The notes under the pieces were generated by a model. The model was given only the letters and a program-made list of their open reading frames with translations, made no database searches and was not told the DNA's origin. Of a DNA stretch of 64,000 nt, positions 3,057-11,852 are shown one piece after another. The DNA is taken from positions 448,001 to 512,000 of the forward strand of contig CAWBKB010000005.1 of assembly GCA_963789265.1 (NCBI GenBank), written 5' to 3'. Source of the DNA: an uncultured delta proteobacterium. Lineage in GTDB: Bacteria; Desulfobacterota; Desulfomonilia; Desulfomonilales; Desulfomonilaceae. The position numbers and the translations under genes are program-made. Each line of letters starts with the position of its first letter. Position 1 is the first letter of the stretch.

Positions 3057-3368
3057 GTGTTTGGTATTAAAGATCTGTTGCAGCAGGCGCAAGGATTGCA
3101 AGCCAAGATTACTGCATTGCAAGAAGAATTGGCAGAGAAGACTGTCACAGGAAGTGCAGGAGGGGACATGGTGCAGGTCACGGCAAGCGGGGCTCAGGAG
3201 ATTGTATCCATAAAGATCGAAAAAGAGCTTCTTTCGCCTGATGACCCGGAATTCCTTGAAGACCTTATCGTCGCCGCGGTCAATGACGCGCTGAAAAAAT
3301 CCAAGGAAATGATGTCCCAGGAGATGTCAAAACTCACCGGAGGCCTTCGTATCCCGGGTTTGACGTGA
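3057..3368 (+). CDS. ybaB: YbaB/EbfC family nucleoid-associated protein
   Basis: GSAGGDMVQVT and LEDLIVAAVNDA motifs; SD GGAGG; upstream of recR. Confidence 0.95.
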   Translation: MFGIKDLLQQAQGLQAKITALQEELAEKTVTGSAGGDMVQVTASGAQEIVSIKIEKELLSPDDPEFLEDLIVAAVNDALKKSKEMMSQEMSKLTGGLRIPGLT

Positions 3369-3442
3369 CGGATAATTTAATGTCTTGTAGGAATTCGCTT
3401 TCAAACAAGTGACACCGTGTTTATAGCAGGACAGGCATCTAT

Positions 3443-4680: not shown

Positions 4681-4730
4681 GGGCTAGCCGAAGGTAGCCC
4701 TTGCGCGGTCGTAGTGACTGCGACTACGCA
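4681..4730 (-). other. Two RNA hairpins in the leader of the 4462-4656 gene
   Basis: Minus strand CGTAGT-CGCAGTC-ACTACG and GGGCTA-C-CTTCGG-C-TAGCCC (cUUCGg tetraloop). Confidence 0.55.
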
Positions 4731-4865
4731 GTTGAATGGTTGCATCACAATCCCAATGCTGCCTTAGCAATATCTTGTATAAGTAACTGATGCCCTCAAG
4801 CTTCCATCGCAACCTCCATAAGCTGTATTAGTAAATGCGCATATACTGAAATACAGGTGAAAAAA

Positions 4866-5294
4866 TTATTTCTCTTTCCCCACCTTTTCCATTTGGGTCC
4901 GCACCTTTTTCAACTCGTCCTCAAGTTCCTGCTCCAACCGCCGCAGGTACGCCAGTTCTTCTTCCCTTGATTTAACTTCCTCGCCCATAGTCCGGTCCGG
5001 CATCCGACAACTCCCCTCACAACCGCAACGGCAAACGTTAGAGATAACTTCGCCGCATTGATCAAGCGCGGCCTGGTCCACCTCGTAGGGTATCCAGAAG
5101 CCTTTGCGCTGATTCCGAACAAGTCCGGCGTGTCTGAGGATCTTGAGATGCTGGGATACCGCAGACGGGGTTATGCCAAGCGTTTGTGCTATTTCATTCA
5201 CGTACAGGGGTCCCCTTTGCTTCAGGAGATCAATGATCCTGATCCGAGATTCAACACCAAGGACTTTGAACAGTTCCGCTTCCTTGCGACACAT
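4866..5294 (-). CDS. ArsR/SmtB family regulator with C-terminal CRCGC...C and coiled-coil extension
   Basis: LFKVLGVESRIRII, SAVSQHLKILRHAGLV HTH; tail resembles the 4462-4656 protein. Confidence 0.9.
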   Translation of the reverse strand: MCRKEAELFKVLGVESRIRIIDLLKQRGPLYVNEIAQTLGITPSAVSQHLKILRHAGLVRNQRKGFWIPYEVDQAALDQCGEVISNVCRCGCEGSCRMPDRTMGEEVKSREEELAYLRRLEQELEDELKKVRTQMEKVGKEK

Positions 5295-5309
5295 GGAGTG
5301 TTTTTCCTT

Positions 5310-5357
5310 ATTTTAGTATCCGCTTAAATGCTACAATGACCTCCTGCTCCATGTCAA
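5310..5357 (-). promoter_or_regulatory. Putative sigma70 promoter and operator of the leftward arsR operon
   Basis: TTGACA (5357-5352), 18 nt, TAGCAT (5333-5328), overlapping the imperfect inverted repeat ATTTAAG-N6-CTAAAAT. Confidence 0.5.
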
Positions 5358-5388
5358 GATAATTTTCGGAAAGCCTGAAAAAAGTTTC

Positions 5389-5440
5389 TTGACACGCAAC
5401 CTAAGAATTGCAATAAATATATCAATGGCCATTAATGTAT
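5389..5440 (+). promoter_or_regulatory. Promoter region and ArsR-type operator of the selenoprotein operon
   Basis: TTGACA at 5389; inverted repeat ATATATCAATGG/CCATTAATGTAT (5417-5440, 10/12 match). Confidence 0.6.
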
Positions 5441-5480
5441 TGATTGCTAAATAGCAAAAAGAAGTCCTAAAGGAGAAACG

Positions 5481-5816
5481 TTGCCCGTCAAAGAACAAGA
5501 CAAACCTCTCGATCTCGAACAAAACCTGGGCATCGCAGCCTTTGTGAGCAAGAGCCTTTCGGATGAGAACCGCCTCCGAATCCTTTTGTCGTTGCGCAAC
5601 GGCAGGAAGACCGTCTCTACCATAGTGGAGGAGATGAATCTTTCTCAACCCCTGGTTTCCCATCATCTGAAGGAGCTGAGACGGTGCCTCCTGGTGAACG
5701 TGGAGCGCAAGGGCTTGTTCGTGTACTACGAGATCGCGGACGAGAGAATCATCGAAATAGTTTGGCAACTGGCGTATCTGGCAGCGGATCTGCTCTCGCA
5801 GAGAGATACCTTCTAG
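5481..5816 (+). CDS. ArsR/SmtB family regulator heading the selenoprotein operon (TsoR-like)
   Basis: SD AAGGAG with TTG start; KSLSDENRLRIL, LSQPLVSHHLKELR, VERKGLFVYY. Confidence 0.9.
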   Translation: MPVKEQDKPLDLEQNLGIAAFVSKSLSDENRLRILLSLRNGRKTVSTIVEEMNLSQPLVSHHLKELRRCLLVNVERKGLFVYYEIADERIIEIVWQLAYLAADLLSQRDTF

Positions 5817-5834
5817 CTTTTGGAGTGGAATCAC

Positions 5835-6290
5835 ATGAATAAGGGAAGAATTCAGGACCTTGTCGAGTCAATGGATCCAATTGACGCAGCCAAGGAGATG
5901 GCTGACGCAGCGAAGAAACTCTTCTCTCTTTTAGGAGAAGAAGCACTTCGCGATTTTCTCATCAATCTGATCGGAAACGGGGGCCAGGACAAGATTACCG
6001 GCCTGGTCCACTTATGACTGGCTACATGCATGGACGAAGGTGTCGATCCAAAAGCAATGTGCCAGAGTTTAGTGGAAAAAATAAGTCAATCCGAGCAACT
6101 GCGTTCGGTGACGGACCCGCAGATTCTTATTCTGTTTGAGGACTGGCTGGAAGAACTGGAAAAGGAGGCAGTGAGTGTGATTGAGCGTGGAGGCCCCACT
6201 GCCCCCGAAGACCTGTCCAGAGAGTTGGGTTTATCACAATCCGGCTCGATGTTCCTCATTACGAAGCTCAAAAGAGACGGCAAGATATAG
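5835..6290 (+). CDS. tsoA: Selenoprotein with LULATC motif and C-terminal wHTH-like region (151 aa; UGA=Sec at 6015-6017)
   Basis: ORFs 5820-6017 and 6030-6290 are in frame (TTA TGA CTG GCT ACA TGC ATG); long SECIS-like hairpin follows; the name is recalled from the NCBI LULAXC family. Confidence 0.85.
6018..6065 (+). promoter_or_regulatory. Bacterial SECIS-like hairpin for UGA 6015
   Basis: CTGGC/GCCAG, ACAT/ATGT, GC/GC, TGGA/TCCA, CGA/TCG stems; apical loop AGGTG 20 nt after the UGA. Confidence 0.8.
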
Positions 6291-6328
6291 GTTTTCATCG
6301 TACCCAGAGTTCCGGACTGGAGGCTGAC

Positions 6329-8089
6329 ATGGCAATCGAGGTGAACTGGAAAAGACTTTGGCTCCCGCTCTTGGCGATCACGGTAACGGTGGGAGTTCTC
6401 TGGTTCACAAACAGAGAGGTGACCCCAAGGGAACCAAAGTGGAACGACGTGGTAGTTGAAGCCAGGGAAGGCGGCTACCGGCTCATAAATACCGATGGAC
6501 TCAGGCAGCGGTACGAAGCAGATCCCCGGAGCATTTTGTTGGTGGATGCCCGTCAGGACTGGGAATTTGCAATGGGCCACATAAAAGGCGCGGTCAATTT
6601 CCCAATGGAACCTACTGCGTGGTCGAGATGGCGGAAAAGGGGCAAACTCGCGCAGGCGCTTGGTCCCGACAAGAATCGCTTCATCGTATTTTACTGAGCA
6701 GGACTTACCTGAGTCCGTAGCGACTCTGCCGCTCGTGTAGCGGTGCAACTAGGTTACAAGAATGTATATCGTGACGCAAAGGGGTTTCCAGAATGGAAGG
6801 CTGCCGGTCTTCCCATTGAAAGCATTCCTGCGGATCGGACAAGATCCGCATCTGTACCTGAAAACGCCGGGCCACTATACGGCTGGGCAATGCTCTGGAC
6901 CTTATTGGGTGTCTTCGGAGGCGGACTGGCACTCAACCTTACGCCGTGCGTTTATCCCTTAATTCCTATAACCGTCTCCTACTTTGGGGGCAGGAGCGGT
7001 CAGAGACGCGGAAAATTGGCAGTTCACGGTTTGCTGTATCTGGGTGGTCTGTCCGTGACCAACTCAGTGTTAGGGGTAGCGGCGGCTCTCACGGGAAGCC
7101 TGATGGGAGCGGCGCTTCAGAACCCCGTAGTGTTGGTGGTTGTCGCCGGTGTTCTGGTTTTCTTTGCCACAAGCCTCTTCGGATTCTGGGAGCTGCAACT
7201 TCCCCAGAATCTTGCAAGGGCAGCATCCAAGTCGTACGCAGGATACTTTGGTACGCTGTTCATGGGCCTGACTCTCGGTGTAGTTGCAGCTCCGTGTCTG
7301 GGACCTTTCGTCCTGGGGTTGCTTACTTGGGTGGCGAGTATGGGCAGCCCTTGGTTGGGTTTTCTCATCTTCTTCACGCTCAGCCTTGGGTTGGGAGTGC
7401 CGCTCTTTATCCTGGCGATGTTCTCAGGCAGCCTGGAAAAGCTCCCCGGTTCGGGTGAGTGGATGCTGTGGGTGAGAAAACTGATGGGCTGGGTGTTGAT
7501 CGGAATGGCTGCGTATTTTGTCAAACCTCTGTTACCGTCCTCGGCAGGTGTGTTTGTATTGGCGGCAGTAGCCCTAGCAGCAGGGTTGCACCTGGGGTGG
7601 ATCGACGGTACTCAAGCCGGTTTCAAAGCATTCGGCGTGCTGAGAAACGTGGTCGGTATAGCCAGTGTAGTCTTGGGGGCTTTTCTGCTCGGTTCCTGGC
7701 TAATGGTAGGACCTGGAGTCTCATGGCGACCGTATTCCGATGAAGCACTCGAGCAGGCCCTAAAGTCTAACAAGCCGGTAATCGTAGATTTTTCCGCAAC
7801 GTGGTGTACGCCATGCCGTGAACTCGAAGATATTACGTTTCGTGATCCGCAAGTGGTGAAACAGGCTAAAGACGGCTTCGTCATGGTCAAGGTTGACCTG
7901 ACCAAAAAGGGGAACCCGCTCTACGAAAAACTGGTCGCGCTATATGCGATCAAAGGGGTCCCGACGGTGGTTTTCTTCGACGGTCATGGCAGAGAACGTG
8001 CCGATCTGCGCCTGGTTGATTTCATCCCCGCTGATCAATTCTTGAGCAGAATGACTCAGGCAATGCAATCATGGAACTCGGGTTCATGA
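6329..8089 (+). CDS. tsoB: Rhodanese-DsbD(beta)-thioredoxin fusion selenoprotein (586 aa; UGA=Sec at 6695 and 6710)
   Basis: ORFs 6329-6697 and 6743-8089 are in frame: IVFY-U-AGLT-U-VRSDSAARVAVQLGYKNVY...GFPEW completes the rhodanese fold; then LTPCVYP, AAPCLGP and WCTPC. Confidence 0.9.
6727..6747 (+). promoter_or_regulatory. SECIS-like hairpin downstream of the tandem UGA codons
   Basis: GCCGCT-CGTGT-AGCGGT stem-loop; loop 21 nt after UGA 6710 and 36 nt after UGA 6695. Confidence 0.65.
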
Positions 8090-8117
8090 GAACCCGTAAA
8101 ACAAGGAGGGAGGAATC

Positions 8118-8393
8118 ATGTTGAAAGTCCGCTTTTTTATGAATGAACCCAATGGCAAGCCTTGAAGACACTTCAAGGAAATGGCGTCCAGGTTGGGCGC
8201 AGAATACCCCATCGACATTGAAGTTACGTCAAAGCCACGCGCTGAATACCGAACCGATGAATGGGCCGAGACAGAACTTCCCTGCGCTCCGGCAATCATG
8301 ATCGGCGAAGACGTTGTGGCAGAAGGGTCGGATGTTACCGAAGAGAAGGTTGTTGCCGAGATCAGAAAACAACTGAGTATGCCCCCAATTTAA
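8118..8393 (+). CDS. tsoC: Thioredoxin-fold-like selenoprotein with NEPNGKPU motif (91 aa; UGA=Sec at 8163-8165)
   Basis: SD GGAGG and ATG 8118; MLKVRFFMNEPNGKP-U-RHFKEM continues in frame into ORF 8181-8393 (LPCAPAIMIG); the C-terminus may be cut short by an indel. Confidence 0.85.
8184..8200 (+). promoter_or_regulatory. SECIS-like hairpin for UGA 8163
   Basis: GCGTCCA-GGT-TGGGCGC; GGT loop 25 nt after the UGA. Confidence 0.7.
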
Positions 8394-8484
8394 ACCGGAG
8401 AAGACAGGGATCTTGGGTAGTGGATTTGACAAGCGAGTCTCATAGCGTGTCAACGGAACCTATTTCTAATCTATTGGCAGAAAA

Positions 8485-9337
8485 ATGAATATGCTCATCA
8501 TAGAGAATGAGCCAATAATAAGGCTCGTTTTTTTCCTGGGAATATTTTTGGCTGTGGCGTTGGGAGAGCTCGCCGCCCCTCGCCGCCGCCTTCTCACATC
8601 CAAGGCTTCTCGCTGGTTCGCTAACATAGCGATAGTCATCATAAATACTGCCGTTGTAAGATTTATGTTTCCTGTCGCAGCCGTAGGCATGGCAGTAATT
8701 GCGGCTCAGAAGCATTGGGGACTCTTTAACAACCTCGCGATGACGTTACTGGGTCGCTGTCGTCTTGTCGGTGGTCATTCTTGATTTCGTAATTTACCTG
8801 CAGCATGTCTTGTTCCATGCAATTCCGATCTTTTTCCGATTGCACATGATGCACCACGCGGACTTAGACTTTGATCTGACTACAGGCACTCGTTTTCACC
8901 CAATCGAAATCATCCTTTCCATGCTGGTTAAAGTCGCAGCCGTTGTCCTCATCGGAGCGCCCGCAGTGGCGGTCATCATCTTTGAAATGATCCTGAACGC
9001 TACATCTACATTTAATCACGGTAATGTGCTTCTCCCTCTGGGGATAGATCGAGTGTTGCGGCTACTCGTGGTCACCCCTGATATGCACCACGTTCATCAC
9101 TCTGTTTTTCCTTTTGAGACGAACAGCAACTTCGGCTTCAATTTTCCTTGGTGGGATCGCCTCATGGGAACTTACCGAGACCAGCCAAGATCGGGCCACG
9201 TTGAGATGGCAATAGGGTTGAATCAGTTCCGAGACCCCTCGCGCCTCACACTACTAAGAATATTGGCCCTCCCGTTTGTCGGCACAACCGGCAACTATCC
9301 TATCAATCGCCGCGGCGTTTCCGGTGGAGATTCTTGA
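8485..9337 (+). CDS. Sterol desaturase/fatty acid hydroxylase superfamily membrane protein (frameshift ~8745)
   Basis: His boxes HVLFH, HMMHH, HHVHH; RFHPIE; NSNFG..WDRLMGTY; two ORFs joined by a +1 shift. Confidence 0.85.
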
Positions 9338-11646: not shown

Positions 11647-11852
11647 GAGGCTGTCTCAAAACTATATTGATGACCAGAATCGTGCCACGATGCAGCCCGG
11701 CGCTGAAGCACCGGTCTACTTTCTATCGCCCCGATGGGGCTCAAACGCAAGAGTCCCGGAGGGACAAGGGATAGTAGCCCGGTAATTCATTACCGGGAAA
11801 GTGGGGCATCGTGCCACGAATCTCGTTCATGCCTCCCTTTTGAGACAGCCTC
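11647..11852. mobile_element. MITE inserted in the centre of a GTAG-type REP
   Basis: 15-bp TIR GAGGCTGTCTCAAAA; CATG target duplication; flanks rejoin to GTAGAGGCACGGCATGCCGTGCCTCTAC. Confidence 0.85.

Follow-up and report, generated by a model that had tools for sequence, protein, structure and literature searches.

In E. coli-type DsbD (NF001419 / PRK00293), electrons are passed from thioredoxin to the beta domain, from there to the gamma domain and finally to the alpha domain. The beta domain consists of eight helices with a cysteine in the first and in the fourth one, the gamma domain carries a CxxC motif, and the alpha domain is immunoglobulin-like. A fusion of such a conduit with a rhodanese is curated in NCBIfam as TsoB (NF045694, rhodanese/DsbD fusion-like selenoprotein), and the table of a 2026 review (PMC13188914) lists TsoB with the motif UxxxxU and two selenocysteines (Sec, U) as part of the Tso "three selenoprotein operon", which is credited there to Haft & Tolstoy 2025 (mSystems 10:e0141724). 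Here, we describe a gene for such a rhodanese/DsbD fusion, tsoB, on a stretch of 64,000 nucleotides (nt) from contig CAWBKB010000005.1 of an uncultured delta proteobacterium (Desulfomonilaceae), hereafter called the window. All features discussed below are compiled in Table 1.

Translation with TGA read as Sec resulted in 586 residues followed by a terminal TGA, starting from an ATG codon. Two in-frame TGA codons, corresponding to U123 and U128, lie in the motif RFIVFY-U-AGLT-U-VRSDSAAR. With translation table 11, the same frame is split into an open reading frame (ORF) of 122 amino acids (aa) at 6329-6697 and one of 448 aa at 6743-8089, as the first-pass annotation of this DNA had already pointed out. 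Analysis of the 586-aa product against Pfam revealed a rhodanese domain (PF00581, residues 68-159, E 2.9e-15, 57 bits with a cut-off of 22.2), a DsbD membrane domain (DsbD_TM, PF02683, residues 189-401, E 1.2e-41) and a thioredoxin domain (Thioredoxin_7, PF13899, residues 466-551, E 1.2e-15), one polypeptide carrying all three in this order. The redox motifs of the DsbD-like part are TPC (T205-P206-C207), APC (A321-P322-C323) and WCTPC (W492-C496). Direct reading of the sequence together with the Pfam results thus reproduced the frame, the double TGA and the motifs that the first-pass annotation had proposed.

A search against NCBIfam assigned the product to NF045694 with 995.6 bits (cut-off 805, E 4.7e-300), residues 10-578 aligning with positions 3-571 of the 572 positions of the model. 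Based on this score, on neighbours that exceed the cut-offs for TsoR, TsoA and TsoC, on synteny and on the motif given in the review, it is almost certain that the window gene encodes the TsoB selenoprotein. It is the middle gene of the described tsoR-tsoA-tsoB-tsoC operon of sulfate-reducer-type Desulfobacterota, and its closest named relatives are metagenome-assembled genomes (MAGs) labelled Desulfomonile or Desulfomonilaceae. Compared with the family, it revealed the same domain order, the UxxxxU motif, two Sec residues and the same gene neighbourhood, and no distinguishing trait was found. The novelty implied by the first-pass annotation was not borne out, since architecture and UxxxxU motif are those of the curated TsoB family listed in the table of PMC13188914; the window copy is an ordinary member of a family that has had a name and a publication since 2025, and is of low novelty. 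A full-text literature search on TsoB and on the combination of rhodanese, DsbD and selenocysteine resulted in a single match, this review.

Table 1. Coordinates of tsoB, its predicted domains and RNA elements, and the neighbouring genes in the window
Feature	Position	Strand	Basis and remarks
tsoB, 586-aa double selenoprotein (rhodanese/DsbD fusion)	6329..8089	+	NF045694; stop codon TGA 8087-8089
Ribosome-binding site GGAGG	6319..6323	+	5 nt 5' of the tsoB ATG, read from the sequence
N-terminal signal-anchor helix, residues 10-27, after K8 and R9	6356..6409	+	hydropathy peak 1.65, loop charges; AlphaFold2 (AF2) helix 7-28
Rhodanese domain, residues ~39-165	6443..6823	+	PF00581; block pLDDT 79-93 over residues 41-160
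Sec codon 1 (U123), at the position of the rhodanese catalytic Cys	6695..6697	+	alignment to solved rhodaneses
Sec codon 2 (U128), in an active-site loop 2 residues longer than canonical	6710..6712	+	alignment
Hairpin 1 (GAGUC-CGUAGC-GACUC), candidate selenocysteine insertion sequence (SECIS) for UGA1	6711..6726	+	starts 13 nt after UGA1; stem holds the GA of UGA2
Hairpin 2 (GCCGCU-CGUGU-AGCGGU), SECIS element by comparison	6728..6744	+	starts 15 nt after UGA2; covariation
Eight-helix DsbD-beta-type core, residues 187-460	6887..7708	+	DsbD_TM, NF001419; C207 at 6947-6949, C323 at 7295-7297
DsbD-gamma-like thioredoxin domain, residues ~464-580	7718..8068	+	Thioredoxin_7, Foldseek; WCTPC C493-C496 at 7805-7816
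tsoR, ArsR/SmtB-type metalloregulator	5481..5816	+	NF045707, 150.3 bits (cut-off 115); no Sec codon
tsoA, LULAxC selenoprotein	5835..6290	+	NF045695, 213.1 bits (cut-off 170); Sec TGA 6015-6017
tsoC, NEPxGxxU selenoprotein	8118..8393	+	NF045708, 136.2 bits (cut-off 45); Sec TGA 8163-8165
Second ArsR/SmtB-family regulator, 142 aa, tail CRCGCEGSC	4866..5294	-	NF033788, 84.6 bits; HTH_5, E 7.4e-16; divergent from tsoR

As judged from sequence comparison, tsoB is almost certainly translated as one 586-aa polypeptide with Sec at both UGA codons. This is based on the conservation of both codons, on homologues with Cys at both positions, on the Sec machinery of the genome, and on a covarying hairpin downstream of UGA2 and the codon choice in a second one (see below). 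To cover the relatives, one genome per species was scanned (144 relatives), and the best 80 loci were examined, originating from Desulfomonilaceae, Desulfobaccales, Desulfobacterales, Syntrophobacterales and one Nitrospinaceae MAG. All 80 displayed TGA/TGA at the aligned positions, two of them (L028 and L074) being found by looser matching; such conservation goes well past anything that chance would produce. In a sample of 401 genomes drawn evenly from the phylum, 26 had a match over the family cut-off, and each of the 30 such places holds exactly two TGA codons. Four of the sampled genomes (G051, G121, G148 and G169) harbored two places each over the TsoB cut-off, one of those in G169 being partial (model positions 97-571). 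Regarding metagenomes, the best 80 loci were taken, of which seven end before the motif, leaving 73 informative ones; TGA/TGA was found in 70, TGC/TGC in one (L129) and TCA/TCA in two (L144 and L146).

The genome of the window (6.06 Mb, nine contigs, 95.6% complete) encodes the Sec machinery with all components over their cut-offs, namely selB (386.3 bits), selA (594.5 bits), a tRNA-Sec (71.3 bits; called tRNA-SeC with anticodon tca by ARAGORN) and selD (359.6 bits; G000:C7:193442-194362, locus L018). The latter gene contains one in-frame TGA, and the selenophosphate synthetase of the host is probably a selenoprotein itself.

Full-length homologues without Sec are rare in the protein databases. 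Four of them (P0039, P0041, P0042 and P0044) have C/C at the Sec positions and, together with TGC/TGC in L129, provide the CxxxxC counterparts with which the first-pass annotation had suggested comparing the gene. In addition, P0064 has G/R, P0123 has G/C and P0092 lacks the segment. In an alignment of 31 sequences, P0064 is the sole exception to Sec or Cys at positions 123 and 128. A search restricted to the region with the rhodanese part of P0044 resulted in only three rhodanese-DsbD clusters (E <= 1e-10). Either the two-selenol cycle proposed below is not obligatory for every homologue, or the copies with other residues are inactive.

In the metagenome locus L129 (1838-1855), the sole Cys/Cys tsoB among the informative ones, hairpin 2 is still paired at 6/6 positions, which suggests a recent conversion from Sec to Cys. 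The near-identical contigs L144 and L146 (both 3358-3375) encode Ser/Ser at the Sec positions, again with 6/6 pairs in hairpin 2, and this could represent a naturally occurring variant without redox activity, a change of very recent date, or an artefact of assembly or polishing. Recoding of Sec to UCA was ruled out for these contigs, as their tsoA and tsoC genes retain TGA.

That no readthrough takes place, so that the locus yields a truncated rhodanese of 122 aa plus an independent DsbD-like protein of 448 aa from GTG 6743, or is a pseudogene, is hardly credible. ORF calling with table 11 yields exactly these two ORFs, and 114 of the 120 database matches listed are proteins of 394-480 aa without a rhodanese family, the top match being the window's own 448-aa ORF. 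Such entries fit gene calls that begin after the second UGA. Against separate products stand both TGA codons kept in all 80 examined genome loci across several orders, the full-length Cys/Cys homologues and the complete Sec machinery. Furthermore, the 448-aa ORF would start in the middle of a rhodanese helix, and its GTG start codon lies inside the covarying SECIS hairpin just downstream of the UGA codons.

For an analysis of this RNA region, 79 different segments of 90 nt, each beginning 6 nt 5' of UGA1, were aligned and pairs were counted for two hairpins, and a wider set consisted of 140 distinct sequences from all loci. In the 79 sequences, hairpin 2 was paired in 99.6% of the cells. Its variable pairs join the third codon positions of Ala134 and Ala138 and of Ala135 and Val137, and both covary: pair 42-54 was found as GC in 42, AU in 20 and CG in 13 sequences (34 double changes), and pair 45-51 as CG in 60 and UA in 19 (19 double changes). 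None of 500 shuffles reached the covariation score, and controls slid along the alignment fell to 24-62% paired. The wider set revealed the same pairs (42-54: GC 82, AU 31, CG 19; 45-51: CG 109, UA 29). Since covariation at synonymous sites is hard to account for by the protein, hairpin 2 is, on these comparative grounds, a SECIS element.

The second small hairpin probably supports Sec decoding as well, as its codon choice indicates. Hairpin 1 was paired in 97.7% of the cells in the 79 sequences, and a single compensatory C-G case was found, in L074. Val129 is encoded by GTC in 72 and by GTT in 4 of 76 sequences and never by GTG or GTA (0/76), which together account for 54% of the Val codons elsewhere in tsoB. 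The codon of Ser131 in the loop is AGY in 80/80 sequences, compared with 42% elsewhere in the gene; as the sequences are related to each other, these counts are descriptive. Based on the spacings of 13 and 15 nt, one hairpin per UGA appears plausible. In E. coli fdhF, the distance between UGA and hairpin is about 11 nt.

Another hairpin, in which alignment columns 13-17 pair with 24-28 and which was derived from the centroid fold of a single sequence, was rejected: it was paired in 83.8%, 318 of 500 shuffles were as good, and its central pair is broken in 62 of the 79 sequences. Folding of 6690-6790 as a single sequence revealed no energy signal (z = 0.61), and the hairpins emerge only by comparison. 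A scan of the window at Rfam gathering thresholds detected no SECIS family; its sole match was the Acido-Lenti-1 sRNA (RF01687) at 11752-11797 (-), with 41.7 bits and a gathering score of 37.

The solved structures nearest to the rhodanese part of TsoB are 6mxv, 2hhg and 3d1p, with 6mxv as the best Foldseek match. Alignment to these three placed U123 on the catalytic Cys (FYCGG--FRS in 6mxv, FYCAG--LRS in 2hhg). As the known rhodaneses require a gap of two residues to be aligned with TsoB (FYCGG--FRS against FYUAGLTUVRS), U128 is placed in an enlarged active-site loop, and TsoB does not have the six-residue loop (C-x4-R/S type) of rhodanese sulfurtransferases. Compared to single-domain rhodaneses and Cdc25/Acr2-type folds (6mxv, 2hhg, 3d1p and Cdc25B), TsoB shares the fold and has its first Sec at the position of the catalytic Cys after the ...VFY strand, but differs in a loop longer by two residues, a second Sec five residues on, selenium in place of sulfur, and a tether to a membrane conduit. 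Other selenoproteins of the rhodanese family likewise have Sec within or beside the loop of the active site, namely forms 1-4 in the table of PMC13188914 and the "LYCAU" proteins of NF041203. The rhodanese forms in that table have one Sec (UxxS, UxxG or CxU), and none of those rows names a fusion to DsbD. The NF041203 model matched TsoB with 38.1 bits, far below its cut-off of 115 bits.

The remainder of the protein is of the DsbD type. The DsbD model NF001419 (574 positions) aligns collinearly with residues 187-578 over its positions 167-572, i.e., its beta and gamma domains, at a score of 226.8 bits (under the cut-off of 330 bits). C207, C323, C493 and C496 are invariant in 31/31 aligned sequences. 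For the C-terminal domain, Foldseek revealed the gamma domain of E. coli DsbD as best match (1uc7, E 7.1e-08, TMt 0.80, 31% identity). TsoB shares with E. coli-type DsbD a beta core of eight helices, of which the first and the fourth contain Cys, and the CxxC motif of the gamma domain, but it lacks the immunoglobulin-like alpha domain and has a signal anchor and a Sec rhodanese instead: no alpha-domain family was among its Pfam matches, and residues 28-186 are the rhodanese. The replacement of DsbD alpha by a rhodanese, as asserted in the first-pass annotation, is thus in agreement with both the collinearity and the domain content.

Hydropathy analysis predicted one helix at the N-terminus (residues 10-27) and eight in the core. 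Counts of Lys and Arg were 2 for the N-terminus and 4, 2, 1 and 1 for the loops between transmembrane helices (TM) 1-2, 3-4, 5-6 and 7-8, all predicted to be cytoplasmic, and 0, 0 and 1 for the predicted outer loops TM2-3, TM4-5 and TM6-7. Based on hydropathy and these positive-inside loop charges, the anchor is very likely oriented N-in, with a periplasmic location for the rhodanese as well as the thioredoxin domain and a core that begins and ends outside, as in DsbD. A cytoplasmic rhodanese had been named beforehand as a finding that would speak against the proposed arrangement; in silico, the rhodanese came out periplasmic by the positive-inside count, like the thioredoxin domain.

An opposite placement, in which the segment of residues 10-27 is not membrane-spanning or is cleaved off with the orientation reversed, so that a cytoplasmic rhodanese would receive electrons rather than end their path, is highly improbable. 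The modest hydropathy of the N-terminal helix (1.65) would allow it, but eight core helices require the thioredoxin domain at the C-terminus to be on the same side as the segment preceding TM1, domains similar to DsbD gamma are located in the periplasm, and the loop charges fit an N-in anchor followed by an out-to-in TM1.

AF2 modelling of whole TsoB resulted in a pLDDT of 65.6 and a pTM of 0.42, with mostly 65-86 for the thioredoxin domain and mostly 30-60 for the membrane core, and the model was used solely for secondary structure and domain fold matches. A complex prediction of the rhodanese (residues 33-168) with the thioredoxin domain (residues 456-578) of the Cys form P0042, based on a 5-row alignment, gave a score of 0.00 (mark 0.32), which speaks neither for nor against contact of the two domains.

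Taken as a whole, the locus is probably best explained by a TsoB with a reductive relay and periplasmic domains. By analogy with DsbD, the relay would end at a U123-U128 diselenide, and we lean towards such a reductive path ending at the rhodanese. A cytoplasmic donor of the thioredoxin type, for which the thioredoxin-fold selenoprotein TsoC is a candidate, would pass two electrons to the membrane pair C207/C323, from where they would move to C493/C496 and then to the diselenide in the enlarged rhodanese loop. U123, in the catalytic position, might accept sulfane sulfur, selenium or a metalloid (e.g., a metalloid oxyanion), and U128 might resolve this adduct so that the reduced product is released, with formation of the diselenide that the relay would reduce again. 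Such a cycle resembles the logic of thioredoxin-coupled arsenate reductases.

More tentatively, and as a possibility rather than an expectation, TsoB may be a new kind of DsbD-powered extracytoplasmic reductase with a diselenol-diselenide cycle of U123 and U128, whose Sec codons are decoded by tandem mini-SECIS elements, a first hairpin 13 nt after UGA1, whose stem holds the second UGA, and another 15 nt 3' of UGA2. Its substrates could then be the sulfane sulfur of polysulfide or thiosulfate, selenite, tellurite or arsenate, with recharging via C207/C323 and C493/C496; any particular substrate on its own is doubtful. A reverse function, with the Sec pair as oxidant or isomerase for periplasmic thiols similar to overexpressed PspE or DsbA-type systems, seems quite unlikely. 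Diselenides and selenenylsulfides are good thiol oxidants as a matter of general chemistry, and no result obtained here speaks specifically for this role, whereas the core and the C-terminal domain of TsoB are of the DsbD type, which is reductive in all characterised members, and no quinone-linked partner resembling DsbB was seen in the operon.

The neighbouring genes bear on both the donor and the substrate of the proposed relay. No Pfam family was over threshold for TsoA and TsoC. AF2 predicted TsoC (pLDDT 89.3) as a beta-alpha-beta thioredoxin-like fold with U16 at the N-terminus of the first helix, and its Foldseek matches listed were mostly thioredoxins, the best E value being just 5.9e-03. 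As no signal peptide was recognised by eye, TsoC is probably cytoplasmic. Translation of tsoA probably starts from ATG 5835; the ORF listing has it from TTG 5820. Searching the 80 genome loci, several of which are truncated, with tblastn resulted in matches for TsoC in 68, for TsoR (upstream) in 59 and for TsoA in 52. The second ArsR regulator gave matches in 37 of the 80 loci, some of the weaker ones overlapping tsoR, and in several loci (e.g., L035, L038, L058, L062 and L072) it sits between tsoB and tsoC.

These regulators bring in the main rival to the reductive relay. Here, the periplasmic diselenol rhodanese would be a site for very high-affinity binding or hand-over of soft metals or metalloids (Hg, As, Te, Cd, Cu) and not a catalytic reductase, with TsoA and TsoC as cytoplasmic selenol chaperones, two ArsR/SmtB sensors, and a DsbD-like part that just keeps the selenols reduced. 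TsoR as an ArsR/SmtB-type metalloregulator, the second ArsR with its Cys-rich tail recurrently linked to the tso locus, and the U-x3-C motif of TsoA and the C-x3-U motif of some TsoC paralogues, which resemble metal-binding motifs, all suit this explanation, and the arsenic metallochaperone ArsD is among the thioredoxin-fold matches of TsoC, though at rank 45 with E 2.4e-02. We nevertheless regard it as unlikely: a rhodanese fold carrying Sec in the catalytic position classically serves as scaffold for sulfur or selenium transfer or for Cdc25/Acr2-type reductases, members of the ArsR family also sense persulfide or sulfite (BigR-type models gave weak matches), and no metal transporter or reductase gene was seen beside the operon in the window. 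ArsR-type regulators fit a metal or metalloid signal and a persulfide or sulfite signal alike.

Several observations weigh against the relay with periplasmic, Sec-based rhodanese as preferred here. Persulfide sensing and metal or metalloid sensing are equally compatible with the two ArsR-family regulators, hairpin 1 shows no covariation in the 79 sequences, and the topology was deduced from hydropathy and charge counts only. Moreover, the AF2 model of whole TsoB is moderate and cannot show domains touching, and the homologues P0064 (G/R) and P0123 (G/C) as well as the Ser/Ser loci L144 and L146 do not keep two redox residues.

The tso loci revealed some differences in gene content. In L034 (5734-6051), L035 (from 5737) and L081 (4346-4657), a second TsoC-type gene is located directly 3' of tsoB, displaying C-x3-U (NEPCGKPU or NDPCGLTU) in place of N-x3-U; the copy in L034 reached 136.1 bits on NF045708. 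L037 (5689-6195) and L043 (5753-6259) harbor an ORF of 169 aa between tsoB and tsoC, which in L037 matched the GcvH-related model NF045810 with 240.8 bits (cut-off 150) and in L043 is similar by eye. Of TsoX, TsoY and the GcvH-related protein, which accompany some tso loci, none was over its cut-off in the 95.6%-complete genome of the window, where GcvH-like matches were weak (best 49.1 bits). Seven loci of the Desulfobacterales type (L027, L053, L059, L083, L086, L092 and L097) gave no TsoA match and have about 400 nt between a TsoR-like match and tsoB; no convincing ORF was seen in these 400 nt 5' of tsoB, and the regulator match is weak (33-37% identity). Seemingly longer tblastn matches in the same seven loci, which could be taken for N-terminal extensions of TsoB, were treated as a joining artefact; in L027, that frame contains stops in the stretch 5' of tsoB, whose start is normal.

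Within the window, an ORF of 167 aa (orf167, 5331-5834, -) is most likely an antisense shadow of tsoR and was rejected as a gene, most of its tblastn matches overlapping tsoR coordinates. Scans of 4700-8800 for promoters and terminators were uninformative, with five promoter-like sites (2.8 +/- 1.7 expected) and eight terminator-like sites (4.9 +/- 2.3 expected). Downstream of tsoC, a gene of the fatty-acid hydroxylase family (PF04116, E 2.1e-25) at 8485-9337 (+) is split over the overlapping frames 8485-8784 and 8765-9337, which may reflect a frameshift or a sequencing error; in the relative L020, its parts are in one frame.

Regarding annotation, public gene calls for the TsoB family mostly appear truncated after the second UGA, as seen from the database matches listed without rhodanese, and therefore correct annotation matters for metagenome surveys of selenium use. 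The family was described only in 2025 and was recovered by the first-pass annotation from raw sequence alone, so that such reading of sequence proves sensitive to real recoding. Two Sec residues five positions apart in one protein are rare, and the tandem hairpins, an observation which may add to the published account of TsoB, could show how SelB serves two UGA codons 15 nt apart. If the proposed relay is true, anaerobes would have a new route for bringing reducing power out of the cytoplasm, namely a DsbD-type conduit that supplies a selenium-based rhodanese.

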